From: Bacillota bacterium
Lineage (GTDB): Bacteria > Bacillota > Proteinivoracia > UBA4975
DNA: 41,709 nt
Assembly (NCBI GenBank): GCA_012727415.1
Contig: JAAYHI010000023.1
Coordinates: 1-41,709, forward strand
Reading direction: 5' to 3'
Position numbers and translations under genes: made by a program
Notes under the pieces: generated by a model
Told to the model about the DNA's origin: nothing
What the model saw: the letters and a program-made list of their open reading frames with translations, nothing else
The model's database searches: none
Shown: positions 6,516 through 34,677 of the stretch, piece by piece
Layout: every line of letters starts with the position of its first letter
How positions within the stretch are numbered: the stretch's first letter is position 1

Positions 6516-6554
6516 TATCTTAAGCTAATATTTTGCTGTTGGAGGGGATTGCCC

Positions 6555-7940: not shown

Positions 7941-9828
7941 CTTAATTATAGGCACTGCCGGCCATGTAGACCATGGCAAGTCTGCCCTCATCCGGGCGCT
8001 GACGGGCATTGAGACTGACCGCCTGCAGCAGGAAAAGCAGCGGGGGATTACAATAGAGCTGGGGTTCGCCTGGTTTGACCTTCCCGACGGGAGGCGGGCA
8101 GGGATTATCGATGTACCCGGCCACGAGCGCTTTGTGAAGAATATGCTGGCGGGGGCCGCCGGCATTGATGTGGTTTTACTGGTGGTGGCTGCCGATGAGG
8201 GAGTCATGCCCCAGACCATGGAACACCTGGCGATACTGCAATTGCTGGGGGTGCAAAGGGGCATTGTCGTCATCACTAAAATCGACCTGGTGGATGACGA
8301 GATGCTGGAGTTGGCAGAGATGACCATTGATGAGGCCCTTGAGGGGACCTTTCTCCAGGATGCTCCCCGGGTGCGGGTTTCGGCAGTCAGCGGCGAAGGT
8401 TTGGAAGAGTTGCGGCAGGTGCTGGCCGACATCGTCACCGCCGCACCTTCCCGGCCGCGGCGGAGCTTTTCCCGCCTGCCTGTAGACAGGGTCTTTGTCC
8501 TCAAGGGTTTTGGCACAGTAATTACCGGCACATTGCTGGACGGCAGCATTAAGGAAGGGGACCAGGTGCTGCTGATGCCTGGGGAAATCAGCGCCCGGGT
8601 CAGGCAGTTGCAGATTCATGGCAACCACGTCCCTGAAGCCCATCCCGGCCAGAGGGTGGCGGTAAATCTGGCGGGAGTTGAGCGCCAGGGAATTCACCGG
8701 GGACAAGTTCTCTTTAAGGGGGAAGGCCTTGAGCCGGTGGACAAAGTCGCCGGCCGCTTCTATCTCCTGCCCTCGGCCCCTGTTCTCACAAGCAATACTC
8801 GCATTCGCTTTCACTGCGGTTCCAGCGAGACCATAGGCCGCGCTGTAATCCTGGGTGCCGACCAGGTGGAGCCGGGCAAAGACGCCCTGGTGCAGTTTCG
8901 CCTGGAAGAACCAGTGGTGGCGGTGCGGGGGGATCGCTATGTCATTCGCTCCTGGTCACCGGTCACTACCATCGGCGGCGGCGAAATTATTGAGACCGGC
9001 CGTCAGCGGCTCAGCCGCCACAAGCGCGAAGTGGTGGATAATTTACTGCTGCGGGAAGAGGGGGATCCCCCTGCCCTGGTGTTATCTTACCTGGATGAGG
9101 CCGTCCGGCCCTTATCCCGGCGGCAACTGCTCCTCAAGGCCCAATTGGCTCCTGAGGAACTTGAACAGGCTTTAAAGGAGCTGGGGGGCACCGTCATTAC
9201 TTTTCAGGCCGATGGTGAAGAATGGCTTTTCAGCAAAGGGGAACAGCTGCTGGCTCAACTGAGGGATTTGTTGGCCAAGTGGCATCAGGATAACCCCCTG
9301 CGCCAGGGGATGCCCCGGGAGGAGGTGCGGACCCGGTTGTTGCCCAATGTCGGCAGCCGCGGTTTTGCCTCTTTGCTGGAAAAGCTGTTGCCGGGGTCGG
9401 GGATTAAGGAGCAGGACAGGGAGCTGGCCCTGGAAACCCATGAAGTATCTTTGTCGCCGGAACAGCTTGCCCTCCAGGAAAAGCTGCTCCAGGTTCTGCG
9501 GGAAAATCTCTTTTCTCCGCCTCAGGGGGAGGAGTTGGAGGCCTTGGGTCCCGTGGCGCCCTTGCTCAAACTCCTGGCCCAGCAGGGCAGCATTGTCATT
9601 GCGGGAGGGATGGTCTTTGCCCGGGAAGCCATCGAGGCCGGGGGAGCCTTCCTGCGCAAGCATTTTGAGCAGGAACCCCAGCTGACCTTAGCGCAATTTC
9701 GGGACTTCATCGGCAGCAGCCGCAAATACGCCTTGCCCTTGCTGGAATACTTCGACGGTGCCGGCTTTACACGGCGGCGGGGAGATGTGCGCATCGCCGG
9801 CCCGAATTTAAGGGGTGTGGAGCTATGA
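7930..9828 (+). CDS. selB: Selenocysteine-specific translation elongation factor
   Basis: GTPase motifs 'GTAGHVDHGKSALIRALTG', 'DVPGHERF' and 'ITKIDL', followed by a long C-terminal winged-helix extension typical of SelB. ATG-7930 overlaps the selA stop by 11 nt. Confidence 0.92.
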   Translation: MDNNLIIGTAGHVDHGKSALIRALTGIETDRLQQEKQRGITIELGFAWFDLPDGRRAGIIDVPGHERFVKNMLAGAAGIDVVLLVVAADEGVMPQTMEHLAILQLLGVQRGIVVITKIDLVDDEMLELAEMTIDEALEGTFLQDAPRVRVSAVSGEGLEELRQVLADIVTAAPSRPRRSFSRLPVDRVFVLKGFGTVITGTLLDGSIKEGDQVLLMPGEISARVRQLQIHGNHVPEAHPGQRVAVNLAGVERQGIHRGQVLFKGEGLEPVDKVAGRFYLLPSAPVLTSNTRIRFHCGSSETIGRAVILGADQVEPGKDALVQFRLEEPVVAVRGDRYVIRSWSPVTTIGGGEIIETGRQRLSRHKREVVDNLLLREEGDPPALVLSYLDEAVRPLSRRQLLLKAQLAPEELEQALKELGGTVITFQADGEEWLFSKGEQLLAQLRDLLAKWHQDNPLRQGMPREEVRTRLLPNVGSRGFASLLEKLLPGSGIKEQDRELALETHEVSLSPEQLALQEKLLQVLRENLFSPPQGEELEALGPVAPLLKLLAQQGSIVIAGGMVFAREAIEAGGAFLRKHFEQEPQLTLAQFRDFIGSSRKYALPLLEYFDGAGFTRRRGDVRIAGPNLRGVEL

Positions 9829-10721
9829 ACCTCAACTTCTTGCGCACCTTTGTCAGTGTTGTCGAAGAAGGCAACTTCTCCCGGGCGGCTGCCCGCCTGC
9901 ATCTGTCCCAGCCTGCAGTGAGCATGCAGATGCAGACTTTGGCAGATGACCTGGGTGTAGAATTGTTTCGGCGCCGGGGCCATCGGGTGGAACTGACTGA
10001 AGGCGGGCGCCTCCTGTATGACAAGGCCCGGGATATCCTGGGACTTTGGCAGAAGACGGTGCACCAGCTGGAGGGGCTGCAGCAGCAGCTGCAGGGCAGG
10101 CTGCAGTTGGGGGCCAGTACTGTCCCGGGAGACTACATTCTTCCTCCGCGACTATGTGAATTTTTTCGCCTCCATCCCGATATAGAAGTGCGCATGCAAG
10201 TTGCCCCCAGCCGGGAGATTATCAGGGAGCTGAAAGCGGGGCACCTGGACCTGGCAGTAGTGGGCCTTGAGCCTGAGGAGCCTGATTTGGCCAGGGAAGT
10301 GCTGCTGCGGGATCAGTTGGTGGCAGTAGTCAGCCCTGACCACCAGCTGGCTCAGGGCAGGCATATTACTGTTGACGATTTGCTGGCCCATCCCTTTTTG
10401 CAGCGAGGGGAGGGCTCGGCAACAAGACAGGTTTTGGATGATGCCCTCAAGGCAAAGGGAGTGAACCCCAGGCGGTTGCCGGTGGTGATGGAGCTTGGCA
10501 GCAGCCGGGCGCTGCTGGAAGCTGCCGCCCAGGGCTTAGGGGTGGCAGTGGTGTCAAGCCTTGCGGCCGCCGACTATTTCCAACAGGGGCAACTGGTGGG
10601 CAAGCCCGTCTCGGGCCTGGAGCTCAAGCGGAGCTTTTGGCTGGTGCAGCCCAAGGTTTCCCTGTCTGCAGTTGTGACCGCTTTCATTAATTTTTTGCGA
10701 AGGAGTGAAAATCTTGCCTGA
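9825..10721 (+). CDS. LysR-family transcriptional regulator
   Basis: N-terminal HTH 'LRTFVSVVEEGNFSRAAARLHLSQPAVSMQMQTLADDLGVELFRR' and a LysR substrate-binding-type C-terminal half. ATGA overlap with the selB stop. Confidence 0.9.
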   Translation: MNLNFLRTFVSVVEEGNFSRAAARLHLSQPAVSMQMQTLADDLGVELFRRRGHRVELTEGGRLLYDKARDILGLWQKTVHQLEGLQQQLQGRLQLGASTVPGDYILPPRLCEFFRLHPDIEVRMQVAPSREIIRELKAGHLDLAVVGLEPEEPDLAREVLLRDQLVAVVSPDHQLAQGRHITVDDLLAHPFLQRGEGSATRQVLDDALKAKGVNPRRLPVVMELGSSRALLEAAAQGLGVAVVSSLAAADYFQQGQLVGKPVSGLELKRSFWLVQPKVSLSAVVTAFINFLRRSENLA

Positions 10722-11742
10722 AGATATTCGCCTTACCCAAATGACAGAGGCAGCAGGCTGAGGTGCTAAACTGGGTCCGGGAGACCTGGCGCAAGTACTG
10801 GCGAAGCTGGATCTTAAGCCCGATGCCAACCTGCTGGTGGGGGCAAACACTGCAGATGACGCCGCTGTATACAAACTCAATGCCGAGCTGGCTGTTATCA
10901 GCACTCTGGACTTTTTTACCCCGATGCTGGATGACCCATACTCCTTCGGTCAGGTGGCTGCCGCCAACGCCCTCAGCGACATCTATGCCATGGGAGGGGT
11001 TCCCTTTCTCGCCCTCAACATCGTCGTCTATCCCCGCAAGCTTCCCCTGGAAGTGTTGGAATCGATTCTGCGGGGAGGCGCCGACAAAGTGATGGAAGCC
11101 GGTGCCAGGCTGGCGGGGGGGCATTCCATTGCTGAAGACAGCCCCATGTATGGCCTTGCTGTCAACGGCCTGGTCCACCCCGATAAAATCTGGACCAATG
11201 CCGGCGCAAAACCCGGGGACGCTTTGGTGTTGACCAAGCCCCTTGGCAGCGGCATCCTCTGCACAGCCATCAAGGGCGGCATTGCCACTGAGGAAGAAAT
11301 CTCCGCCGTTACCGAAGCAATGACCACTCTCAATGCCGCTGCCGCGAAAGCCGCTGCGGATTTAGAGGTTCATTCCTGCACTGACATCACCGGCTTCGGC
11401 CTGCTGGGCCATTTATCGGAAATGATGCTGGCCAGCAATGTGCGGGCAGAACTGGAATATGCCAGCATCCCCTTGATTACCGGTGTGGTGGAAAAGGCAA
11501 GTATGGGCATGGTCCCGGGAGGAGCCTACCGCAACAAAAAGCACCAAAGCTGCATGGTGCATTTCGCCAAGCCTGTAAGCGATGCTGAGGCCGATGTCCT
11601 CTTTGATCCCCAGACTTCCGGGGGCCTGCTCTTCAGCCTGCCCGAGGAGGATGCCAGGGTGTTGACCCGGCAGAATGTCGGCTGGCGCATAGGGCGGGTT
11701 CTGCCTCCGGGTGAAGATGGCAAATTGCTGCACATTGTCTAG
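10714..11742 (+). CDS. selD: Selenide, water dikinase (selenophosphate synthetase), Sec-containing form
   Basis: Reading from TTG-10714 (RBS AGGAG at 10701-10705) gives 'MPEDIRLTQMTEAAG-U-GAKLGPGDLAQVL'. TGA 10759-10761 sits where E. coli SelD has the catalytic Cys ('IRLTQYSHGAGCGCKI'). The ORF-track entry 10837-11742 is only the part downstream of the UGA. Confidence 0.88.
10771..10789 (+). promoter_or_regulatory. Candidate bacterial SECIS hairpin for the selD UGA
   Basis: CUGGGUC-CGGGA-GACCUGG forms a 7-bp stem (two G.U pairs) starting 10 nt after UGA-10759. The apical region contains GGUC, as in known bacterial SECIS elements. Confidence 0.4.
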
Positions 11743-11780
11743 CTCTTGCATCCCTTTGGGGATAAAGCTATAATATTACC

Positions 11781-11875
11781 GGGAATGGAGGAGTCCTGGT
11801 GGACTCTCTGGACTTCAAATCCAGTAACGGGCAGTGTATGTCCGTGGTGGGTTCGATTCCCATGCATTCCCGCCA
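11781..11875 (+). tRNA. selC: tRNA-Sec (anticodon UCA)
   Basis: 95 nt. It has a long acceptor stem (GGGAATG.../...CATTCCC), a 6-bp D stem GAGTCC/GGACTC with a 4-nt loop, and an anticodon stem CTGGA/TCCAG with loop CTTCAAA (UCA). It also has a long variable arm, T-loop GGTTCGATTCC, discriminator G and an encoded CCA. Confidence 0.93.
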
Positions 11876-11911
11876 TTTTTTTATATTCTTGGTTTAAGGA
11901 GGTGTTCCGCC

Positions 11912-12607
11912 TTGAACCTTAAGACAAAGCGCCAGGTAGTTACTGTTACCAGCGGACAAGCTGGGGAAAGGACTGACTTGCTGGCAACTGAAAGGCCGCT
12001 GACTATAATTGTCAACGGCCGTCAATATATTAGCCTGTTTTCCAGCGGCGGGTACGTGGAAGAACTGGCTGTGGGCTATGCCTTCAATCAGGGACTGCTG
12101 GCTTCCAGGGAAGACATACGCTCTCTGTCTGTCGGCGGCGACAGGGCGGTACTGGACCTTGCCGCCAAGCCGGGATCGGGAACCCTTCCCAGGATCACGG
12201 CGGGGATTAAGCTGCCGCCAGCCCAGATAACCAGACTTATGACAGAGTTTTCTTCAGCTTCTGTACTGTTTCAGGAGACCGGGGCGGTGCACTCGGCGGC
12301 CCTGGCGGGGGAGACAATCCTTGTCTTTCGGGAGGATATCTCCAGGCACAACACCATTGACATGTTGGCCGGTACCATAATTCTGCAGGGACTGAATCCT
12401 GAGTCCTTGTGCCTGCTTACCAGCGGCCGGATTTCTTCCGAGGTCGTCAGCAAATGCCATCGCATGGGAATAGGCCTTCTCATATCCCGCTCCGCTCCCA
12501 CTGCCCTGGCAGTGGAGCTGGCTGCAGAAGCGGGCATTACTGTAATTGGTTTTGCCCGGGAACAGCGCTTTAATATATACTGCAATCGGTGGAGGGTGGA
12601 GATATAA
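11912..12607 (+). CDS. fdhD: FdhD-family formate dehydrogenase accessory protein (sulfurtransferase family)
   Basis: 'GAVHSAALA', 'REDISRHNTIDMLAG', 'LLTSGRISSEVVSKCHRMGIGLLISRSAPTALAVELA' and 'GITVIGFAREQRFNIY' match the FdhD core. TTG-11912 (RBS AGGAGG at 11897-11902) is chosen because the ORF-track start at 11834 lies inside tRNA-Sec. Confidence 0.8.
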   Translation: MNLKTKRQVVTVTSGQAGERTDLLATERPLTIIVNGRQYISLFSSGGYVEELAVGYAFNQGLLASREDIRSLSVGGDRAVLDLAAKPGSGTLPRITAGIKLPPAQITRLMTEFSSASVLFQETGAVHSAALAGETILVFREDISRHNTIDMLAGTIILQGLNPESLCLLTSGRISSEVVSKCHRMGIGLLISRSAPTALAVELAAEAGITVIGFAREQRFNIYCNRWRVEI

Positions 12608-13144
12608 GTGTTGAGACAGATCTTGGGCTTGTTGCTCCTGGCGGGAGTGGGCATAGCTTTGCTGGCAGGCGGCATTGCCGGAGCCCATGGCTGGGAGCTG
12701 CTTGCCCTGATAACCATAGGCCTGTTATTTTGCTTGGGGTTGGCCAGGCTCTTTTTCGCCCTGAAGGGAGGCGCCGCCAGCGGGGAAAGGGCGGGATTTC
12801 TGCCCATTGTTACTGCTGCAATTGTTGGCGCTGCTGCAACCTGGGGGCTGAGGGCGGGCCTGGGAATCAACCCATGCGTCGCTTCGGGGTTAGTGGGCAT
12901 TGTTGCTGCTCTGGCCCTGTCGGAGAATGTGGCGGCGGCGGTTTACGCAGCGTCCTTTGTCGCTACTTCCTCGCTGACGGTGTTGCCAGGCCTGCCCTTG
13001 GTGCTGTGGGCAGGGGCTTTAACAGGCGGCATTTGCTGCCTCACCTCCTCCGCCTATGCAGGCGTCGGCGGCAAACTGGGCACGATCGCTGCCGGGGCAG
13101 TGTTGGCTACCATGCTGATCTTCAGGGCTTTAGGGGGGATGTAG
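12608..13144 (+). CDS. Gly/Ala-rich integral membrane protein, unknown family
   Basis: 178 aa, about 5 hydrophobic segments. GTG start lies immediately after the fdhD stop. The C-terminal motif 'AYAGVGGKLGTIAAGAV' is shared with the next ORF. Confidence 0.6.
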   Translation: MLRQILGLLLLAGVGIALLAGGIAGAHGWELLALITIGLLFCLGLARLFFALKGGAASGERAGFLPIVTAAIVGAAATWGLRAGLGINPCVASGLVGIVAALALSENVAAAVYAASFVATSSLTVLPGLPLVLWAGALTGGICCLTSSAYAGVGGKLGTIAAGAVLATMLIFRALGGM

Positions 13145-20061: not shown

Positions 20062-21522
20062 ATGAAAAGACCAGTAATAGTAATAGATTTCGACGGCCAC
20101 TACAGCGGCCTGGCCAGAAGCATCCGCAAACTCAAGATCTGGTCGGAAGTATTGCCCTGCCATGCAACCCTGGAGGAAATTGCAGCCCGCAAGCCCCTGG
20201 CCCTTATTGTCGCCGGGGACGGGGCAGCATTAACCCCGGAACTGTTGAGCCGGGGCTGGCCGCTGCTGGTCCTGGGCCAGGGAGTAAAGCTGCTGGCAAG
20301 ACTTACCGGGGGGAACCCCGTTGAACAAGGAAGCATCCACTCCACAGAACTTAACAGTACTGACCCCCTCTTTGCCGACTTTCCGGAAGCCATTGAGCTC
20401 AGGGGGAAAGTCCAGGCCCCTCCCGGCTTTGATGTCATTGCCGGTACAGCCACTGAGGCAATAGCTGTTGCCGATAAAAACAGAAAGCTATATGGCCTGG
20501 AATTCCATCCCGCCCCCCAGCAGACCGACATTCTCCTGGCCAACTTTCTGCAGGGAATTTGCGGCCTGCAGCCCAACTGGTCTGCGGGGGAATATATTGA
20601 CCAAGCCGTAGAAGCCATCAGGGTGCAAGTAGGCAAGGAAAAAGTCATCTGCGGCCTCAGCGGCGGCGTCGATTCCGCTGTCGCTGCCGCCCTGGTGCAC
20701 CGGGCAGTGGGGGACCAACTGACCTGCTTTTTTGTGGACCACGGTCTGCTCCGCCAGGATGAGGCCGGAGAAGTCATGAAGGCCTTTGCTGGCAAGGGCA
20801 TCAAGGTCCTGCAGATCGACGCCCGCCAGAGATTCCTGAAGGCCTTGAAAGGCGTTGCCGATCCTGAGGCTAAGCGCAAAATAATCGGCCAACAGTTTAT
20901 CCGGGAATTTGAAGCCGCCGCCAGGCAATTGGGGGATGCCAAGTTCCTGGTGCAGGGCACCGTCTACGCCGATGTCATCGAAAGCGGCAGCGGCGATGCC
21001 GTTGCCGTCAAGAGCCATCACAATGTGGGCGGCCTCCCTGAAGAGATGAAATTTGAGCTCTGCGAGCCATTGCGGGAACTGTTTAAGGATGAAGTGCGGG
21101 AGGTGGGCCTGCAACTGGGGCTGTCCGAGAAAATAGTCTGGCGCCAGCCCTTTCCTGGCCCCGGCTTGGGGATTCGGGTGCTGGGAGAAGTCACAGAAGA
21201 GCGCCTAAACATAGTGCGGCATGCTGATGCCATCGTCAGGGAGGAAATGGCCGCCGCCGGCCTCGAGCGGGAAGTTTGGCAGTACTATGCCGCCCTTCCC
21301 AACGTCCGCAGCGTCGGCGTCAAAGGCGGCCGCCGCACCTACATGGAATTGGTGGCAGTGCGCGCCGTCACCAGCATCGACGCCATGACTGCTGAGTGGG
21401 CCAGGCTCCCCTGGGAGGTCCTGGAGCGCATCTCCCGGCGCATACTCAGTGAAGTGGACCAGGTCAACCGGGTGGTATACGACATCACCCCCAAACCCCC
21501 CGGCACCATCGAATGGGAATAG
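20062..21522 (+). CDS. guaA: GMP synthase; ATP-pyrophosphatase and dimerisation domains intact, N-terminal amidotransferase domain degenerate
   Basis: 'CGLSGGVDSAVAAALVHRAVGDQLTCFFVDHGLLR', 'KSHHNVGGLPE', 'VWRQPFPGPGLGIRVLGEVT' and the C-terminal 'ITPKPPGTIEWE' are near-identical to canonical GuaA. See the findings for the N-terminal domain. Confidence 0.93.
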   Translation: MKRPVIVIDFDGHYSGLARSIRKLKIWSEVLPCHATLEEIAARKPLALIVAGDGAALTPELLSRGWPLLVLGQGVKLLARLTGGNPVEQGSIHSTELNSTDPLFADFPEAIELRGKVQAPPGFDVIAGTATEAIAVADKNRKLYGLEFHPAPQQTDILLANFLQGICGLQPNWSAGEYIDQAVEAIRVQVGKEKVICGLSGGVDSAVAAALVHRAVGDQLTCFFVDHGLLRQDEAGEVMKAFAGKGIKVLQIDARQRFLKALKGVADPEAKRKIIGQQFIREFEAAARQLGDAKFLVQGTVYADVIESGSGDAVAVKSHHNVGGLPEEMKFELCEPLRELFKDEVREVGLQLGLSEKIVWRQPFPGPGLGIRVLGEVTEERLNIVRHADAIVREEMAAAGLEREVWQYYAALPNVRSVGVKGGRRTYMELVAVRAVTSIDAMTAEWARLPWEVLERISRRILSEVDQVNRVVYDITPKPPGTIEWE

Positions 21523-21561
21523 TATCAAGAAAGGCAAAAACCCCGATGTTCCGGGGTTTTT
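21508..21561. repeat. Direct repeat copy 1: last guaA codons (IEWE-stop) plus the guaA terminator (att-like)
   Basis: ATCGAATGGGAATAGTATCAAGAAAGGCAAAAACCCCGATGTTCCGGGGTTTTT. By hand alignment it matches 25876-25929 at 34 of the first 39 positions and in the 3' stem half CGGGGTTTT. Confidence 0.8.
21536..21561 (+). terminator. Rho-independent (bidirectional) terminator of guaA
   Basis: AAAAACCCCG-ATGTTC-CGGGGTTTTT. The A-run and T-run flanks let it also terminate the convergent minus-strand ORF 21636-21872. Confidence 0.85.
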
Positions 21562-21635
21562 GACCTTATAAGTGGGATTGATAACAAAATGATAACATTA
21601 ATTTTTTTGGGGTAATGATATCGTGGATACCGGGT

Positions 21636-21872
21636 TTACTTTTTTACTAATTGACTAATGGCAAAAAGAACCGCTAAAACAATGCCCCATTCCCATAAAG
21701 AGGGAAACGTAAGTATGATTATTATTGCGGCTATAATTGACGCTAAGATTGGGGCATGACGACGAAACCATTTTGTCAATACGAGTGCAGACAAAAATGC
21801 CATCAGGATTGCTTTTGGTGTTAAGAATTCATCACGAACAAAATTTTTAAATATCGCAGCTATCTCATCCAC
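21636..21872 (-). CDS. Small two-TM membrane protein, unknown function
   Basis: 78 aa, GTG start with AAGGGTG upstream. It has two clear hydrophobic helices ('AILMAFLSALVLT', 'ILASIIAAIIIILTF...GIVLAVLFAI'). AT-rich codon usage marks it as island DNA. Confidence 0.45.
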   Translation of the reverse strand: MDEIAAIFKNFVRDEFLTPKAILMAFLSALVLTKWFRRHAPILASIIAAIIIILTFPSLWEWGIVLAVLFAISQLVKK

Positions 21873-21911
21873 ACTATCACCCTTTTAAGACGTCTATTAT
21901 TACGCCAATAG

Positions 21912-22379
21912 CTACTTGAAAGGATGTGATCGCCATTCCTCTAGCCATTTTACCAATGTGCTGCCTACAGCACATAAATAGCTAATCCGGTCTGGGTCTG
22001 CGCAGTATGTGTTTATACTTTCAATGTTACCGACAGTTGCGAAGAGATTATCTACTCAGGTTGCAGCTCTGCTGGGTTAAGAGAACAGTATATTGGGAAA
22101 CTCTTCCGTCCCTTCTAGGCTTTCTTGTTTATTACAGAGCCATTCATCAAGCAAAAATTCAATTGAATCCTTTTCGATATATTCGATATATATGTAGAAG
22201 AGCGAAGCAATCCCGGAGTTATCAAAGAGGCTCTTTCTTTTCCAGAGTGTCCGCTCGAATCTGTAATTATCTGCAGCAACTGCTAGTGTCCAGAATAATC
22301 CTGTCGAGTGATAGCGGATTGTTAAATTGCAAAGGTATACATTATGAAGCGGACGTGGGAGCGCATTTAGAGTTATATA
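21912..22379 (-). pseudogene. Decayed minus-strand gene (fragments in different frames, no usable start)
   Basis: Hand translation of the minus strand gives a roughly 100-codon open frame at 22080-22379 ('...ADNYRFERTLWKRKSLFDNSGIASLFYIYIEYIEKDSIEFLLDEWLCNKQESLEGTEEFPNILFS*'). It has no ATG/GTG/TTG in its first ~70 codons. A second protein-like frame lies at 21912-22049 ('NLFATVGNIESINTYCADPDRISYLCAVGSTLVKWLEEWRSHPFK*'). Family not recognised. Confidence 0.35.
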
Positions 22380-22566
22380 TTATTAGGTCCGAGTGGAAAA
22401 GATCGTTTATTTGCGCGTCTTATTTTTTTGAGAGCAACTAATCCTGAGTAGCGGAAGAAATAGCCCTCAATTTTGCATTATTCATGGACGTACCTATCTG
22501 GGGGGGGACATAAAAACGGCGGAGCATAATCCAACAACAATGTCGAAATTTGTATTGAGGAAATTG

Positions 22567-22595
22567 TTGACAATCCCCCAAAAGTAAGGTATGCT
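22567..22595 (+). promoter_or_regulatory. Strong sigma-A-type promoter (TTGACA-17-TATGCT)
   Basis: Perfect -35 TTGACA at 22567-22572, a 17-nt spacer and -10 TATGCT at 22590-22595, about 140 nt upstream of the peptidase gene. Confidence 0.55.
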
Positions 22596-22736
22596 GAGAA
22601 TATAAAGTCAAAGGAGATGGATATTTTTTAGTCGCCATTACTATTATACAATCTTTACGTCCAAGATACACTTTTTGTCTATATGTGCCTAAACATATAA
22701 ACAAAAAATAATATCTAGTATAAAGGAGGTCCCCCA

Positions 22737-23420
22737 TTGAAGGTACTGTTATTAAGTCTTAGTTTGTTGCTCGTTTTCTTACCCACTGCAAATGCACTAA
22801 TTGAACCGGAACAAGCCCCTGATTATTATTCACTTGAGTATCAGACTATATTAGCATCACAATCTGATTCTTTAGTGTCCCCACAATCTTTAAGAGGTTA
22901 TAGCTTTAAGTTTCTGGATGTTCCTGTCTATAGTCAACAACAAACCAACTGGTGTGGCCCAGCATCGACGAAAATGACCATTCATAGTATAAATGGATCT
23001 AGTCCTTCTCAATCCGTTCTCGCTGAAGAAACCGATGCGGATCCAAAGGGGTCATATGTTTACCTGATTGAGAGGTCCTTAAATAAATATATCGCAGGGA
23101 AACCATACAAATATTATACAATAAAAGATGTTAATCTAATTAATAAAAGTGTTCAATCCTTCCAAAACGGGCTGCCAGTGATTTATCGCCTAAAAACGAA
23201 GAACTTGCCAGGTTATGGGGCACATGATACTACTCATTATGTTGTCGGGACAGGGTACTTTGTTGCCTGGGACGAAACTGGAACTATTCGGAATGATGTC
23301 TGGTACAATGACCCTAATGGTTACCGTGCAGGATGCCTAGGAGAGCATATTATACCGTTCAGCACCTTAGAAAACGCTGTTCGAAGAGCTGGAGACGGTT
23401 GGTTCATTCCAAAAAAATAA
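22737..23420 (+). CDS. Secreted papain-fold cysteine peptidase (C39-like / C47-like)
   Basis: Signal peptide 'MKVLLLSLSLLLVFLPTANA'. The nucleophile block is 'VPVYSQQQTNWCGPASTKM' (Gln, then Cys73). 'THYVVGTGY' carries His167 and 'VWYNDP' carries Asn/Asp191-192, in the Q-C-H-N/D order and spacing of papain-like peptidases. TTG start follows RBS AAAGGAGG. Confidence 0.7.
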   Translation: MKVLLLSLSLLLVFLPTANALIEPEQAPDYYSLEYQTILASQSDSLVSPQSLRGYSFKFLDVPVYSQQQTNWCGPASTKMTIHSINGSSPSQSVLAEETDADPKGSYVYLIERSLNKYIAGKPYKYYTIKDVNLINKSVQSFQNGLPVIYRLKTKNLPGYGAHDTTHYVVGTGYFVAWDETGTIRNDVWYNDPNGYRAGCLGEHIIPFSTLENAVRRAGDGWFIPKK

Positions 23421-23539
23421 TGATATTGATTTTTTATTAGTTATCCGTGAAGGCTGATCTTTGAATGGCTATTGTTAAGACACCGCTTGTTCGGAGGCTA
23501 TAAACAAAATGATACTTCGTGAAGTAGAGGAGGGTCCCC

Positions 23540-24676
23540 TTGAAAAATATTTTTCTCTTTTTCTTGCTTTCCATTATGTGTATTACCTTGGTGGGATGCT
23601 CCAGTACTAGGCCTTTGGTCTTAGAAGTGGTCGACACTCCTTCGATAGAGTACGAGGAAGTTCTCTTTACCTCACTGTATAATACGCTTGATAGCTCGGC
23701 GTTGACTGTACTAGGTTTTTGTGAGGACAGTCTATATTTTGCAGAGAACATCTGGGAGGAACAGCCGATAGCGCAAAGTCTTAATAAATATAATATTAGT
23801 TCAGGACTTATTGAAACAGTTTTTTCATTTCCTCAGAGTCCGCCTCTTGCCTTAATGTCACTGGTAGTCCAGGACGACGCTCTGTATTTTTCTGCATTTA
23901 ATAGTAGGACACAGGATCAATATTATATCTATAAATATGATAGTCAGTTAACTTTACTGGCAGAAGGTTATTTAACTCACCCACTCAGCACCCCAGACTT
24001 AGTTGAGTACAAAGACAGTTTGTTATTTATTGACGAATATTATTTAGATGATAATTATTATTATCGGGTTAATCAAATAGCTGAAGGTAAGTGCTCAGAG
24101 ATAATATCAGATCGGTCTTCAGATAGTGACTCCGTTGCCGTCGTTGTGTCCTCTTTAACCGCTAACACGAATTATTTTGCCTATTCTGTTACCACTGCGG
24201 ATAGCACCCGAGTATATATTGCACAGGATAGCGCTATCTTTAAGGAATTTACCATTGAATTTCGTGTGGGCGAGATAGCCTTTTTGGACGAATATATTCT
24301 GATTCCTTATTATGCTGGAGACTTAGAGCACCCTCGAAATATTGAGGAAGGTATAATGTTAATTGAAGTGAATAAGGATACTCGCTACCAACTGGAGGCT
24401 TTTAATAACCGTTTGTATGATTTCTGCCCTATCAATGATAGCATTGTCTTTGCTGATATATATAAGGACTTAAGCAATTCGAAAGAAAACTACGTGCCTT
24501 ATCTACTCAGTGCTGAGGAGGGAACATTATATGCGGCAAAACTGGATAAAAGCAAATTGCCTAATCAGCCTGTTTTCGCTGCAAGGCTAGACGATACTGA
24601 GTTCCTAATGTTTAATTGGTCTCTTGAGAACGATCAATTACAAGCGGTACGGGTTAGAGTTAAATGGCAGAATTGA
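23540..24676 (+). CDS. Lipoprotein with repeated beta-propeller-like blades (DUF5050-like)
   Basis: Lipobox 'ITLVGC|SS'. Six or seven repeats of a 'D-x-hydrophobic-(Y/F)F ... Y(I/R)Y' unit occur, e.g. 'DALYFSAFNSRTQDQYYIYKYD', 'DSLLFIDEYYLDDNYYYRVN' and 'DSIVFADIYKDL'. TTG start follows RBS GAGGAGGG. Confidence 0.65.
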   Translation: MKNIFLFFLLSIMCITLVGCSSTRPLVLEVVDTPSIEYEEVLFTSLYNTLDSSALTVLGFCEDSLYFAENIWEEQPIAQSLNKYNISSGLIETVFSFPQSPPLALMSLVVQDDALYFSAFNSRTQDQYYIYKYDSQLTLLAEGYLTHPLSTPDLVEYKDSLLFIDEYYLDDNYYYRVNQIAEGKCSEIISDRSSDSDSVAVVVSSLTANTNYFAYSVTTADSTRVYIAQDSAIFKEFTIEFRVGEIAFLDEYILIPYYAGDLEHPRNIEEGIMLIEVNKDTRYQLEAFNNRLYDFCPINDSIVFADIYKDLSNSKENYVPYLLSAEEGTLYAAKLDKSKLPNQPVFAARLDDTEFLMFNWSLENDQLQAVRVRVKWQN

Positions 24677-24784
24677 CAAATTGTATCCTCTGAAATAGCA
24701 TCTTTCAATACTAACATGCTCCCCTTTGGGTAAACACCTGAATTAACAATAATTCAGGACTACGCAAAGGGGGGGTTTCAGTAA

Positions 24785-25198
24785 GAAACAATTAGCTACC
24801 TGACCACCCTAGGGCTTTCTCACATCAGGGACAATCTCTACCAGTTGTTGCCGGATATAACCGGCGGAGAAGTTTCTTACCTGCAATTTCTACACAGTCT
24901 CGCCAAAGAAGAGATTACAGCTAGGGAGAAAAGGTCCAGGGACCGCCGTTTGAATTCGGCAGACTTCCCCTACATCGGGACCCCTGACGACTATGACTAT
25001 AGCTTCAACAACTCGGTATCTAAACGCCAAATTACTCAGCTATTAGACTTGTCCTGGGTTGAAGCTGCCTACAACATAGGATTTCTTGGCCCCTCAGGTG
25101 TAGGGAAGACACACCTTGCTGTCACTCTTGGAATCCACGCGGTGGAATCTTCTCGATCACCTGTGGACCTTAGTAATATTGTTTTTACCGTCCATTAG
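24785..25198 (+). mobile_element. IS21-family istB (helper ATPase) remnant, truncated at both ends
   Basis: 'LSHIRDNLYQLLPDITGGEVSYLQFLHSLAKEEITAREKRSRDRRLNSADFPYIGTPDDYDYSF...LDLSWVEAAYNIGFLGPSGVGKTHLAVTLGIHAVES' matches the IstB N-terminal region and Walker A. There is no ATG (a stop lies at 24782-24784). Similarity ends near 25150, before Walker B. No istA is present. Confidence 0.75.
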
Positions 25199-25342
25199 CT
25201 CTTTACCAAGGGGACTATCAATTGTTTTTACGCTTATCGTCGGTGTAGCTTTTGCTTTTATATTGATAAATGTAACGTTCCATCCATGGAAAAAGAATTT
25301 GGGTAATTAGAGAATAAAGTCGCCATCCTCTATTTGCGCAGT

Positions 25343-25366
25343 AAAAACCCCGATATTTGGGGTTTT
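25343..25366. repeat. Third, partial copy of the guaA terminator hairpin (also a plausible terminator)
   Basis: AAAAACCCCGAT-ATTT-GGGGTTTT. The first 12 nt are identical to 21536-21547. Confidence 0.6.
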
Positions 25367-25875
25367 ACTGTGCGTATGCTGTGTGTGTTTTTGACATGGA
25401 TCCTTGATACTCGAATTCATATAAGCCTCCAAGGCCCCCACTACAAAAAACTCGGATTAAAGGGGGAAAGCAATTCCACATTGCTGCGGACTTACACGTG
25501 CCTATTGAAACCATTTTGCATTCAATTTTTTACTCTCAAGGCGCGTTGCTGGACGAATTAAAGGCAATTATTTTATTCGCTAAAAAGGATAGACGCAAAA
25601 AATACCGGGAAATACGTGCCAGAAGGATCTTCCAGTTTTTATGACGACGATTCAAAATGTCGATGTCCTGGTAACTTGGATGCGGATTTTTCGGTCGTAG
25701 AAATCGAAGGCCAGAGATATTGACGCCGTCCGCGTCGTATCTGCTTTGTGGGGCTATCTCGCCCGTAGCGTGTAACAAAAACAATGTAAACCAAAATAAT
25801 AGAGAGAAATTAGCCCAAATATAACCCTAGAGCAGGTGAAAAATACCTCGAAACACCTGGTATTAATACCGGATT

Positions 25876-25929
25876 ATTGAATGGGAATAAGAGCAAGAAA
25901 GCCAAAAACCCCGAAAACATCGGGGTTTT
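25876..25929. repeat. Direct repeat copy 2: degenerate duplicate of the guaA 3' end plus terminator (att-like)
   Basis: ATTGAATGGGAATAAGAGCAAGAAAGCCAAAAACCCCGAAAACATCGGGGTTTT. It still reads I-E-W-E-stop in frame, but the sequence upstream of it is unrelated AT-rich DNA. Confidence 0.8.
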
Positions 25930-26173
25930 AGCATTTAGGGTCTTGAGAATACTGGTAATATATAGATATCATTGACAAAATATTATACTTCTATATTGCT
26001 GCAAAGTCAACCGGATTTACATAGGGGTTTTACTGGAAGGGAATCCAAACAATTCCTCGAATACTTGATTCAGACCTTTACGGAAAGAGAGGGGATATAA
26101 TGAAAGACTAATAAAATAGTTACTATGAAATGAATCGTTCCATAAATTAGAAATGAAGGGTGGGATAGACTAA

Positions 26174-27028
26174 ATGTATCGGAAGATAATTTCTTTTTTC
26201 TTGGTTGTATTAGTGTTTCTATCTAGTGGAAGGGCACTAGCTTCAGGTGTAGTGGAAACAGTTATTTATCAAGAAGAACTGCTAGATGATAACGGGAACC
26301 CTGTGAGCATTACCGTAAAGAAACAAAACGGTGATCTTCTTGTAGAAGTGTGTGTGAACAATCAGCTTGCTAAAACCGCACATGTAGTTGGGGGAAAAGT
26401 AGATCCAACAACGGAAATCATTTTAACCAACCACGAAAGCAACCTCACGACTAAACATATTGTTAAGGAGATACCGTATTGTATTGTTGAGGAGTCCCCT
26501 AAGGCGCATGGTAATATTTCTACCATGCAAGGTGGACTTATTGCCCCTTGCGCTGTCCCGTCATATCCACTAAAGATGACCGGTTATAGTGGTGTTTGGG
26601 GTAAATGGGGTTACCTTTATGCAGAAGATTTTTATTACACTCGTGATGTTTTCCTTTTAATAGAACCAGGGACTTCATTAGCTCTGGTCGTTGCCTTACT
26701 TGTTGGGATAGCGTTGGGGGCAGTTGCCTTTACCGTAAAAGAAATAATCTATGCTCTCGGGGGTACGCTGATTGGCTCGGTGGTAACGTCTCTAGCGAAA
26801 GGAACGGTACGTCAAGACGTTGTAAAAACATTGGGTGAGGTATTTGTAGATGGAAAATTTGTTTCAGGAATAAGAATTGAAAAATATACCACAAAACTTT
26901 ACAATAGAACGGGTGGACTAGCAAAAATTAAACATGGAGCAAGCTATGGTGGACCATACACAACTCTCAGTGAAGCTCTTTTCTGGGGTATAGAGTATTA
27001 TTGTTTGCATGAACCTTGGTTTAGATAG
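26174..27028 (+). CDS. Secreted or membrane-inserting protein with a Gly/Ala-rich hydrophobic core, unknown family
   Basis: 284 aa. Signal peptide 'MYRKIISFFLVVLVFLSSGRALA'. The central segment 'SLALVVALLVGIALGAVAFTVKEIIYALGGTLIGSVVTSLA' contains small-xxx-small glycine-zipper-like spacing. No family recognised. Confidence 0.55.
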   Translation: MYRKIISFFLVVLVFLSSGRALASGVVETVIYQEELLDDNGNPVSITVKKQNGDLLVEVCVNNQLAKTAHVVGGKVDPTTEIILTNHESNLTTKHIVKEIPYCIVEESPKAHGNISTMQGGLIAPCAVPSYPLKMTGYSGVWGKWGYLYAEDFYYTRDVFLLIEPGTSLALVVALLVGIALGAVAFTVKEIIYALGGTLIGSVVTSLAKGTVRQDVVKTLGEVFVDGKFVSGIRIEKYTTKLYNRTGGLAKIKHGASYGGPYTTLSEALFWGIEYYCLHEPWFR

Positions 27029-27114
27029 AAAATCGGTTAAGGAGTATACATGGTTTTTGTTTTTGGAGTAATTACTCAGGCTTCCAGTTTGGCGGCTAAG
27101 AATGGGGGATAAAC

Positions 27115-27531
27115 TTGATAGAAAAAAAACAGTGCACCATGGTAATTGTAAGGTTAGCGATTGGTGGAATAGGTTTTCTTCTTCTGCCCCTATTTTTTCA
27201 TATTTATTTCCTCAAGGCATACTACGTCTTTAGTTCCGCAATTATGTTTATTGGGACTGTAAAACACTTAGTATGCCTCAACCGGGAAAGGCTACGTGAA
27301 CAACCTTATCTCTTAAACGTTGTGAGGGAAGGATTGCTGTTTACGACCTGGGTTGTTACATCATTTTTCGCTATTGCTGTATTCTCTAGGGGTTATTCAC
27401 CTGCAGAGTTATTACAACTCATTACACCTACGCGATTGGTACTGATGCTTCTTGCTTTAGTCGCAGTTTGTTTGGGTTCAGGTGCCCTTATTTACAGCCG
27501 AAAGAAAAAAAAGTTTCGCGGTATTTCATAG
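27115..27531 (+). CDS. Four-TM membrane protein, unknown family
   Basis: 138 aa with four hydrophobic helices and a C-terminal 'SRKKKKFRG' tail. The start is either TTG-27115 or ATG-27139. Confidence 0.5.
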   Translation: MIEKKQCTMVIVRLAIGGIGFLLLPLFFHIYFLKAYYVFSSAIMFIGTVKHLVCLNRERLREQPYLLNVVREGLLFTTWVVTSFFAIAVFSRGYSPAELLQLITPTRLVLMLLALVAVCLGSGALIYSRKKKKFRGIS

Positions 27532-27725
27532 GAACGCGACACCGGGAATTTGCGCCATTGTCAGCATCCTCCTTAATACCTCCCCTCATAATTGACCTAT
27601 AAGGGTAGGTTTCTATGGGGCTGCTGCAATGGCCTTCTCTATCTGCAAAAGCAGGGAATTTTACTTTGCAGCTTCCGGGAAACCTATCTTGCAATTCCCG
27701 GTAAAACTAGTCTACAACAAACATT

Positions 27726-28963
27726 TCAAGGGCTCATGCTACTTGTAGGGGGTTTGCAGGCGCGGCGGTGGAGATGCAAGTAGAGGATTACCACTGGTGT
27801 AAGGATGAGGCCGGAGACGACCAGGGATATAGAAATGCTGGTTTTCAGGGCGATGAAGCCGATTAAGGGCCCGCTGATAATCTGTCCCAGGGAGTTGAAC
27901 TGGCCATAGGTGGAAAGGACTGTTGCCCTGATACCAGGTTCAATGCTCTCGTTGAGCCAGGCTCTGTAGATGGGGCCATTGGTGGTCCTGAGAATGTAGT
28001 AGGTTAGGTAGGTGGAAGCTGCCAGGGGGAAGTTTCTGGCCACAGCAAAGCTGACTATTGCTAGCAGCATCCCTGAGTTGATTGCTGTCAGCAGCCATAC
28101 TTTCTGCAGCTTGCCAGTCCTGGCCAACCTGCGTTTTATATACTCTACAGCTGCGATGCTGGTGACCATGGCAGTGCCATTGATCAACCCAACCCATACT
28201 ATGGGCGGGACTACAATGGCAGGAAGCTTGACATTGTCAATGATATGGGCTATCCACAGCCTGTCCAGTCCTTCGCTGTACAGGCCGTAGAAGAAGGTTA
28301 CTGCCATCATGACAATGAGGAAATGTTTTTTTTTGATGGACTTGAGCCCCTGAGTAAAGATATGTACCATCTGACGGGCAGGGCCTCTATTTTGGGTAAT
28401 GGCAGGTGTAAAGGCAGTCTCGGGCATAAAGCGCAACAAGAAGAGCCCTAGCACTATGAAGAGGGCACCGCCTATGAGCAGGGGCAGATTAATCATAATT
28501 GTCCCAATGAGGGTGCTGATGATAATGGCCAGCAGGGCGCCTACCTGGCCGACCTGGGCCCCTCTGAGAAATCTTTCTCAAGGCCGCGACCTCCCAGTTC
28601 ATCGGTTATCCATGCTTCATCGGCTCCGCTGGTAAAAGTGTAGCCAATGCCCCATACTACCTGGCTAAGAAAGATGAAGAGAAAATTGGGAAACAGGCCT
28701 TCGAGGAAAAAGCCCAAGCCAATTAAGCACAGTCCAATTACGACAGATAGCTTGCGGCTTTTAAGGTCAGCTAAAACTCCTGTGGGAATTTCAAAGAGAA
28801 AAGTGGATAATTCCAGGGCCGTTCCTACCAGGACCAGCTGCATGGCATTAAAGCCTGCAATTTCAATGCGATAAAGCTCGTTAACCGTGAAGACCATTTC
28901 AAAGAGGAAAGCAGAGACCCCTGCGTAGATTAGGTAGATTTTATAGGCGGGCTTAGAAGTCAT
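27726..28963 (-). pseudogene. MFS transporter (EntS / MFS_3-like) interrupted by a frameshift
   Basis: ORF 28541-29002 carries TM1-4 with MFS motif A 'GVLADLKSRKLSVVIG', and ORF 27726-28496 carries the remaining TMs. The downstream frame stays open upstream of its Met as '...FLRGAQVGQVGALLAIIISTLIGTIMINLPL'. The two halves therefore join by a 1-nt shift near 28560-28600. Confidence 0.7.
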
Positions 28964-29093
28964 GGCTACCTCCGGAAGGATAGAATGATTCCATAATACC
29001 ATATCTCGCAGCTGCAGAAGGTGGGTACTGTTGTATCAGCAGGGTTCTTTGCGGTAGAATGAACTGGAACTTAGTGAATGGGAAGCTTAATTC

Positions 29094-32743: not shown

Positions 32744-32774
32744 TATTCATGTAATTTTACAAGTAAAGAATGCG

Positions 32775-32841
32775 CTCGTATAATGTCGGGGATAGGGCCC
32801 GAGAGTTTCTACCAGGCAACCGTAAATTGTCTGACTACGAG
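32775..32841 (+). promoter_or_regulatory. Purine riboswitch aptamer, guanine class
   Basis: CUCGUA-UAA-UGUCGGG-GAUAGGG-CCCGAGA-GUUUCUAC-CAGGCAA-CCGUAAAU-UGUCUGA-C-UACGAG has the P1/P2/P3 architecture and loops of the xpt G-box. The specificity nucleotide before the P1 3' strand is C, which indicates guanine/hypoxanthine. Confidence 0.9.
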
Positions 32842-32897
32842 GATTTACCCGGGTTTTTCCTGGTCCAAACAGCATGAACATGCTGTACTTGGTATGG

Positions 32898-34461: not shown

Positions 34462-34483
34462 GGAGGTGCAAATTGAATAGCAG

Positions 34484-34549
34484 CTCGTATAATCCCGGGA
34501 ATAAGGCTCGGGAGCTCTACCAGGCAACCGTAAATTGTCTGACTACGGG
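34484..34549 (+). promoter_or_regulatory. Purine riboswitch aptamer, guanine class (second copy)
   Basis: CUCGUA-UAA-UCCCGGG-AAUAAGG-CUCGGGA-GCUCUAC-CAGGCAA-CCGUAAAU-UGUCUGA-C-UACGGG. The specificity position is again C. Confidence 0.9.
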
Positions 34550-34619
34550 GAAAGTGTACCTAGGGTCATATTGATCCAAGTGGTACAGGCTGCCATCAGG
34601 CGGCTACACCGAAGGGATA

Positions 34620-34677
34620 AAAGCCCAGGCGGGTAGGTTTCTTACCGTAACCTACCGCGCTTGGGCTTTTCATTTTG
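34620..34677 (+). terminator. Riboswitch 2 expression-platform terminator
   Basis: Long stem AGCCCAGGCGGGTAGGTT / AACCTACCGCGCTTGGGCT followed by TTTTCATTTT. Confidence 0.8.

Follow-up and report, generated by a model that had tools for sequence, protein, structure and literature searches.

The 3′ terminus of guaA, which encodes GMP synthase, occurs twice in the 41,709-nt stretch of DNA analyzed here (the window), whose host belongs to an uncultured Firmicutes-like lineage of ~60% GC found in digester and fermentation metagenomes. The second copy lies 4.4 kb downstream of the first. We conclude that the DNA between them (21522–25878, island 1) is probably a decayed genomic island without an integrase, which was inserted by conservative site-specific recombination at a core sequence in guaA. 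Both island junctions map to an 11-nt core, GA(A/G)TGGGA(A/G)TA, made of the last guaA codons, and comparison with relatives revealed an empty site, occupied sites, and a copy of the same island in a second species. Contigs or loci of relatives are labeled L### (L021, L047, L060, L104, etc.) and their proteins P####; feature coordinates are collected in Table 1.

A Direct Repeat Starts at the Last Codons of guaA

The original prediction for this DNA had picked out two similar strings, starting at 21508 and 25876, as attachment-like (att-like) repeats of an integrated element, and both strings are present there. A repeat search returned the same pair (21508–21546 versus 25876–25914) as the longest direct repeat within 19–32 kb, with 34/39 positions identical (87%), the number that had been counted by hand; it is also the best non-self match in the whole window. 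The local alignment score was 53, far above the values for 1000 dinucleotide-preserving shuffles (mean 17.8, standard deviation 2.8, maximum 31), and the predicted similarity therefore withstood comparison with shuffled sequence. The copies share an exact 11-mer, GAATGGGAATA, and both read Ile-Glu-Trp-Glu-stop as claimed, encoded by ATC GAA TGG GAA TAG in copy 1 and ATT GAA TGG GAA TAA in copy 2. Each is followed by a symmetric A5-CCCCG...CGGGG-T5 hairpin (21535–21562 and 25905–25929), which the terminator scan listed on the minus strand. The reading frame of guaA is intact across the insertion, with the copy 1 codons forming its end at 21522, and the GuaA C terminus reads ...PGTIEWE in 7/7 aligned sequences.

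Two features of the prediction had to be refined. The DNA between the copies is AT-rich, as proposed (GC 0.38–0.44 compared with 0.57–0.61 in guaA and upstream), with the addition that the low GC runs past copy 2 to about 27.55 kb. The similarity to guaA had been described as stopping abruptly upstream of copy 2; an nhmmer profile that combined the real guaA ends from nine relatives extended copy 2 to 25845–25973 (E = 5e-13), which covers ~35 nt of decayed upstream coding sequence as well as a decayed block with TGATAACA repeats downstream. The label "degenerate duplicate" was misleading, as the copies are two distinct variants of the guaA end with a shared core of only ~11 nt. A third hairpin, AAAAACCCCGATATTTGGGGTTTT, is located inside the island at 25343–25366; it is 83% identical to the copy 1 terminator, no guaA-like codons precede it, and as a candidate copy of the guaA-end module it was not significant (E = 0.07–0.5).

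Empty and Occupied Sites in Relatives Define the Island Boundaries

A GuaA homologue search recovered relatives whose GuaA identity was ~80%, ~65%, or lower, and the species-representative genome collection contained no GuaA match closer than 52% identity. Exact-protein look-ups located the window's species in many metagenome assemblies. The repeat was found in each independent assembly of this species that was examined, and all contigs with island proteins show the same layout and both copies; the exact sequence of the island's C39-like peptidase is listed in 97 blocks of the collection index, with the same context in 10/10 places shown. Upstream of guaA, the order groES-groEL, DUF58, transglutaminase, MoxR is kept in all relatives. 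Despite this shared synteny, the DNA immediately downstream of guaA differs in each relative's contig, and many of these contigs end <1 kb from the guaA stop codon, as is usual where DNA is repeated or varies between strains.

L021 is an empty site, in which guaA, its end module, and the downstream genes follow each other with a single core, no island, and no loss of flanking DNA; this relative without the AT-rich genes has one copy only, in agreement with the prediction. L386 is a virgin site, with guaA directly followed by a riboswitch and a permease gene. The corresponding occupied site is represented by L060 and L104, two contigs from the same metagenome and from a lineage almost identical to L021. 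Through guaA, L060 matches L021 at 98.6% identity, and beyond it runs into the island. L104 has a module that no guaA precedes; its left 3.3 kb are 96.8% identical to window 22623–25929, and from the first base of ATTGAGTGGGA (L021 position 11459 on) it follows L021 for 4.3 kb at 99.9% identity. Perfect 15-nt inverted repeats are present at the L060 end and at the L104 start, and the sequences flanking them abut in the window at ~22625, which identifies the two contigs as the two sides of one insertion sequence (IS) insertion in one locus. The IS-like insertion in the island copy of this L021-like lineage, bounded by these terminal repeats (TGATTGAACCCCAAA), is the cause of the breaks in both contigs.

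Base-by-base alignment gave GGGAACA-ATTGAGTGGGA-GTAAGAGC... for the empty site (attB, L021). The left junction (attL, L060) reads as attB up to ATTGAGTGGGA and then has a different stop codon, terminator, and block, and the right junction (attR, L104) reads ...ACCGGATT-ATTGAGTGGGA-GTAAGAGC... Since both junctions fall within ATTGAGTGGGA, the crossover interval is ≤11 nt, and the comparison of empty and occupied sites thus supports the idea of att-like repeats of an integrated element. The guaA genes of the window and of the L060/L104 host are about 80% identical, compared with 96.8% for the right ~3.3 kb of the island. In two species whose right flanks are unrelated, one and the same island adjoins the same core, and no donor sequence extends past the core in L104; it is therefore the right junction that discriminates in favor of site-specific recombination.

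The two variants of the guaA end provide further evidence. L047, most likely the same species as the window, is identical to window guaA at 100/100 positions up to the core and diverges directly after it; there, 25/25 nt equal window copy 2, which in L047 is the real guaA end, and a different island follows. Because L047 has the copy 2 variant as its real end, copy 2 in the window is the former resident end of guaA, which island 1 displaced. The copy 2 variant (TAA GAGCAAGAAAGCC...) is also the real end in L021, L024, and L030. The copy 1 variant (TAG TATCAAGAAAGGC...) is common only to L022, and it was the island that brought in the copy 1 stop codon, terminator, and block. Similarity of this replacement end to L021 stops at 21615 and to L022 at 21586; L024 and L026 do not differ up to and including the stop codon, and past it they are unrelated. 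The terminators of window copy 2 (25905–25929) and L047 (reverse complement, about 131–157) have identical stems and inverted loops (AAAACAT versus ATGTTTT), as if the hairpin had flipped.

An independent doublet of the guaA end was detected in the distant relative L030/L031 (nhmmer, E = 3e-10; GuaA 66% identity), where copies at 11513 and 14035 bracket a 2.5-kb islet with an M10 peptidase gene and small open reading frames (ORFs). In this doublet the guaA-proximal copy is of the TAA-GAGCAG type and the distal copy of the TAG-TAGCAA type, the reverse of the window order. The islands in L132, L047, L022, L030, and L263 have no site-specific recombinase gene, and the low-GC guaA island of L387 has a tyrosine-recombinase catalytic fragment (PF00589, E = 4e-15). 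Besides a tRNA-Ala(GGC) gene, the L387 island (11754–13130) contains two C-terminal fragments of tyrosine recombinases, both decayed and located on opposite strands.

Table 1. Features at and around the guaA end (window coordinates)
Feature	Position	Strand	Basis or details
guaA (GMP synthase, 486 amino acids [aa]), target gene	20062–21522	+	Pfam GMP_synt_C, E = 3e-42
attL core GAATGGGAATA	21511–21521	+	Exact 11-mer; matches the ATTGAGTGGGA crossover interval in L021/L060/L104
Island 1 (~4.36 kb, GC 0.38–0.44, no recombinase gene)	21522–25878		Window compared with relatives
Island-supplied replacement end	21522–21615	+	Last stop-codon base, bidirectional terminator hairpin 21535–21562, TGATAACA-N3-TGATAACA pair 21579–21597
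Hydrophobic ORF, function unassigned, 78 aa, beside attL	21636–21872	-	68% aa identity to an L060/L088 ORF; no significant Pfam match
Decayed gene remnant like the 417-aa ORF of L047	21900–22450	-	Six-frame translation ...RPLHNVY...FERTLW...DSIEFLLDEWLCNK...WLEEWR
Secreted C39-like cysteine peptidase, 227 aa, cargo	22737–23420	+	Pfam Peptidase_C39_2, E = 6e-14
378-aa protein, cargo, lipoprotein-like N terminus as read from the sequence	23540–24676	+	ORF; no Pfam match
IstB (IS21 helper ATPase) fragment, N-terminal half only	24803–25198	+	Pfam IstB_IS21, E = 3e-26, profile positions 3–119 of 238
Right arm of island 1 (putative P arm)	25736–25878	+	Degenerate arm site ~25771–25777; GGTATTAATACC palindrome just before the core
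attR core GAATGGGAATA	25879–25889	+	L104 island-to-host junction at the start of the equivalent ATTGAGTGGGA
Displaced older guaA end	25890–25973	+	TAA stop, hairpin 25905–25929, decayed TGATAACA block
Second low-GC block (GC 0.39–0.45; 284-aa and 138-aa ORFs)	25974–27575		GC scan; no Pfam matches
Purine riboswitches, before purine permease and purE, and sub-threshold Guanidine-I-like match overlapping the second	32756–32857, 34465–34565, 34549–34633		Rfam

Putative Arm Sites Flank the Core

In most relatives examined, a TGATAACA-N3-TGATAACA pair is found in a conserved block after the terminator, +67 to +82 nt from the core. Between L027 and L070 this block is 95.6% identical, better than guaA third-codon positions (59%), the last 300 nt of guaA as a whole (80%), or the terminator (68%). 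The TGATAACA pair is likely a binding site for a tyrosine integrase (putative P′ arm). A metagenome scan for the conserved block with a 17-mer gave mostly chance matches, and profile filtering left seven true modules.

On the other side of the island, the right arm of L104 carries TGATAACAATTTGATAACA at −120/−109 from the core, where the window has a 12-nt deletion. The viral contig L271 contains an identical 19-mer arm pair; its position is exactly −120 relative to a guaA-type core, with a GGTAT...ATACC-type palindrome just before the core, as in L104. This att segment lies just past apparent phage lysis genes, and the contig stops before any integrase. L271 is the only one of 42 viral 19-mer matches with a guaA-type core (~0.0025 expected by chance in our own arithmetic); the 41 other viral matches to the 19-nt arm pair have no guaA-type core nearby. 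A pattern of core plus P′ arm matched nothing in viral contigs, a search with the L271 att segment found L271 alone, and its close phage relatives L272–L278 have neither the att segment nor guaA. A 16-mer viral scan gave chance matches only.

An alternative function for the block, which we consider unlikely, is that of a promoter or operator belonging to the host (TTGATA-N17-TATTAT in several lineages); it would drive the DNA downstream of guaA and have been copied by islands. By our reading of the sequences, the block resembles a near-consensus sigma-70 promoter in L027, L070, L132, and L387, the virgin site L386 keeps a weak version of it, and its conservation exceeds that of neutral sites. 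Against this, the window block has a poor −10 element (ATTTTT) that was not picked up by the promoter scan, and a host promoter leaves unexplained why the same repeat pair recurs with the same geometry in the island right arm (−120/−109) and in phage contig L271. This alternative touches the function of the block only; the att interpretation is unaffected.

A Model for Integration and Its Alternatives

The probable course of events is that a circular form of the island carried the core, a replacement guaA end (stop codon and terminator), and TGATAACA pairs on both arms. A crossover within the core, presumably catalyzed by a tyrosine recombinase, would let guaA read into the island end (copy 1, attL) with the GuaA protein unchanged, and would push the previous guaA end 4.4 kb downstream, where it would remain as copy 2 (attR). 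The predicted attP junction is ...CCTGGTATTAATACCGGATT-ATTGAATGGGAATA-GTATCAAGAAAGGC... (left part also as ...ACCGGATT), and the attB junction restored by excision is predicted to read ...CCGGCACC-ATCGAATGGGAATA-AGAGCAAGAAAGCC... The island could have been moved by an integrase acting in trans or in cis from a helper at the same site, or could have lost its integrase before spreading; mobilization by a helper is suggested by the island being 96.8% identical between species with guaA genes of ~80% identity, and the island may still be mobile. Repeated integration at the guaA-proximal core would push older remnants outward.

Several observations weigh against this model. No intact autonomous element with the same att architecture was found, and no circular or excised form and no contig with the attP junction was observed among the fetched loci. 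Pfam searches of island ORFs, of the other window ORFs searched (a few were assigned by synteny only), and of six-frame translations of 24.7–25.9 kb gave no match to Phage_integrase, Recombinase, or Resolvase. A profile search of the window found no distal att copy or third core bounding the second low-GC block. Within the window's species the island is present in every contig except L047, where another island occupies the site, and the weak TGATAACA block at the virgin site L386 could make the block a host feature. Between species, identity is only 61–87% for the outermost ~320 nt of the island on the left and ~140 nt on the right, in contrast to 96–100% for the cargo between them (about 21841–25735), so that arms and cargo have different histories. 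Finally, L023 and L060 are identical at 251/251 positions from −148 of guaA through the left end of the island, with 258 differing sites upstream. This demonstrates a transfer by homologous recombination in L023. Occupied loci also pass between related species by such recombination within guaA, and strain-level left junctions, which would look alike after homologous recombination from a same-species donor, consequently mark the island boundary only and not the route of acquisition.

It could be argued that the island is a variable cassette passed among strains and species by homologous recombination only, through RecA-dependent crossovers in its conserved flanks (guaA on the left, the ~110–130-nt module on the right), and that a single crossover of the Campbell type between homologous modules produced the two copies without a dedicated recombinase. 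The breakpoint inside guaA in L023/L060 is a clear case of such recombination, the similarity of the copies spans ~130 nt and not 11, and an integrase is absent. The right junction is the difficulty for this explanation, which we regard as improbable. The modules are only ~70–87% identical, with longest exact matches of 11–12 nt in our reading of the alignment, and exact runs of this length are poor substrates for efficient RecA-dependent recombination. L104 is 99.9% L021-like from the first core base, window copy 2 differs just after the core, and the right crossover is thereby confined to ≤11 nt. Three doublets that are unrelated to each other (window, L104, and L030) have their similarity boundary at identical nucleotides, and the core string is also part of a published att site (PMC13418153).

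Also improbable is that the guaA end of this clade serves as a gene-capture platform, in which the module (core, terminator, and the TGATAACA pair with its promoter-like reading in several lineages) would be re-used by a trans-acting recombinase, possibly phage-borne (with L271 as a lead), to stack small cargo islands that lack a recombinase, several of them with secreted peptidases. If true, this would place the site nearer to an integron-like or satellite-like system than to the classical decay of elements that are integrative and conjugative (ICEs) or integrative and mobilizable (IMEs).

If the guaA 3′ end had been duplicated locally in tandem, with foreign DNA inserted later between the copies and the second copy decaying, this would account for two similar direct copies of which the second lacks the rest of the gene; such a history appears very improbable to us. 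Copy 2 matches a different variant, which is a functional end in L047 (25/25 nt), L021, L024, and L030; a species with ~80% identical guaA has the island, at 96.8% identity, together with both of its junctions, and the empty site is single-copy. Chance similarity or convergence of Rho-independent terminators can practically be dismissed: a generic A-tract/GC-stem/T-tract hairpin is present in both copies and at 25343–25366, yet the match includes the last four guaA codons, lies >12 standard deviations above shuffles, and has a profile E of 5e-13.

Island 1 Carries Cargo Genes

The DNA between the att cores is devoid of recombination and transfer genes, and consists of the peptidase gene, the gene for the 378-aa protein, the IstB fragment, and the pseudogene remnant (Table 1). 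No Pfam domains of a conjugation module, or of a relaxase/oriT with its own integrase, as would define an ICE or IME, were detected in the island ORFs, and IstA is not present beside the IstB fragment. The 378-aa protein was found with the peptidase in all loci and in L104. Within the decayed remnant, blastn aligned 22129–22370 at 67% identity. The 78-aa minus-strand ORF beside attL was compared with an 81-aa minus-strand ORF of L021 and showed no similarity to it.

Secreted peptidases are recurrent cargo next to guaA: besides the C39_2 peptidase of the window (22737–23420), there is the M10 peptidase of L030 (12251–12769) and a C39_2 peptidase of the P0022 lineage (227 aa, opposite orientation; L263/L264 11619–18126), which is accompanied by IS3 and rve + AAA_22 genes.

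A Second Low-GC Block Follows attR

Beyond attR, where copy 2 holds the decayed arm block, a second low-GC block (Table 1) is probably the remnant of an older island. It has no homologues in the guaA regions of relatives. The low-GC DNA after copy 2, together with the unrelated DNA after the conserved module in nearly all relatives, suggests tandem accretion. The right edge of the block abuts a truncated gene start and is set by a conserved leader at ~27577–27723 on the minus strand. In L070, the equivalent segment leads to a ribosome-binding site and start codon (ATGCTGACAATGGCA); in the window only 13 codons of the corresponding gene start remain, and the low-GC block has its right edge there.

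This ~124-nt segment recurs at 78–85% identity and in either orientation in the guaA-downstream islands of three other lineages (L022 15968–16091, L070 14111–14228, and L132 3037–3104), and five contigs of the window's species break inside it. A reading of the segment as a structured RNA was rejected, with no covariation and no Rfam match; for the module, Rfam likewise returned no family, and its only matches were the two purine riboswitches further downstream. L020 has a 143-nt direct repeat of its own (11524–11666 and 12548–12690; 87% identity, 1,024 nt apart), which flanks ~0.9 kb of AT-rich DNA just upstream of sdaAB, with a copy-2-like degenerate hairpin nearby (~12478–12505). Possibly, this is a further scar left by an insertion in the plasticity zone.

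The Target Gene and Its Neighborhood

The glutaminase domain of GuaA appears to be catalytically dead in the window's clade. In the N-terminal domain (window 20062–20620) the GICYGMQ motif reads VLGQGVK with loss of the catalytic Cys, 8 residues of the SGGPxSVY motif are deleted in the clade, and FHPE reads FHPA in the window and FSPD, FFPN, or FSPN in the ~80% relatives. Pfam detected no GATase domain in the window's GuaA, and the distant relatives P0008, P0034, and P0061 retain all three motifs.

Following copy 2, the order is 284-aa and 138-aa ORFs, a frameshifted major facilitator superfamily (MFS) transporter gene, NUDIX, sdaAB/sdaAA, and an ABC transporter; further downstream, a purine riboswitch with a permease gene precedes a second purine riboswitch with purE and purB. 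A sub-threshold Guanidine-I-like match (42 bits compared with a gathering score of 63) overlaps the second riboswitch. The MFS gene (27726–29002, minus strand) is split into 256-aa and 153-aa ORFs and is intact (412 aa) in the same-species assemblies L010–L013; the split is either a frameshift pseudogene or a sequencing error. Upstream, at 6549–11875, is a selenocysteine cluster with selA, selB, a LysR regulator, a selD-like ORF, and tRNA-Sec (11781–11875), whose genes were named via Pfam matches to the equivalent genes in relatives.

Relation to Known Elements and Significance

The 3′ end of guaA had been named in the original prediction as a target of streptococcal elements, and the literature agrees: tyrosine integrases of streptococcal ICEs and IMEs (ICE_SmiB6_guaA; IME integrase family Tyr_3) target this site, and accretion with decayed elements has been described for them (PMC4701971, PMC5357655). 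These elements are defined by an integrase and conjugation or mobilization genes, whereas the window island has neither. Tn5801-like islands are also inserted in the guaA 3′ end, with 11-bp imperfect direct repeats as the putative core (PMC4844618). The window core is likewise 11 nt long and derived from the guaA 3′ end. However, Tn5801 elements are 20–27 kb long and have their own tyrosine integrase beside guaA, a Tn916-type conjugation module, and tet(M); the 4.4-kb window island has no int(Tn5801), Tn916-type backbone, or tet(M), and shares with them only the target and the core length. GIflu-1 of Vibrio fluvialis lies after guaA with attL = attR = GAGTGGGAATAAT, which contains the same core string (PMC13418153). 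It differs in its host, a gammaproteobacterium, in its size of 31.6 kb, and in carrying an integrase gene as well as a multidrug-resistance region; the core that the two have in common is probably owed to the ...IEWE-stop end of GuaA, which is universally conserved, and not to relatedness of the elements.

The closest match is an att-flanked, decayed, cis- or trans-mobilizable remnant in a tandem accretion. Such helper-mobilized, att-flanked DNA is known as cis-mobilizable elements (CIMEs) from the ICESt1/ICESt3 family of Streptococcus thermophilus (Pavlovic 2004, Bellanger 2011, cited in PMC5357655). Like CIMEs, island 1 is att-flanked, lacks recombination and transfer genes, and sits at the 3′ end of a housekeeping gene, possibly in tandem with an older remnant. 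CIME mobilization was demonstrated experimentally at the fda site; that of island 1 is suggested by its near-identical copies in two species, no helper element was identified, and the outer att copy of the second block is missing.

The guaA insertion site is already known, and the current understanding of integrative elements is unchanged by our finding. The guaA 3′-end hotspot, described in staphylococci, enterococci, streptococci, and Vibrio, is extended here to an uncultured high-GC Firmicutes-like lineage. The locus offers an unusually clean natural dissection of the site, with empty and occupied forms, variant ends, a virgin site, and one transfer by homologous recombination, and this dissection is the most notable result together with the cross-species copy of an island without an integrase. 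For annotation, the ~6 kb downstream of guaA should be regarded as accreted foreign DNA and the guaA stop codon and terminator as imported with the island. Island 1 is a candidate for mobilization in trans.

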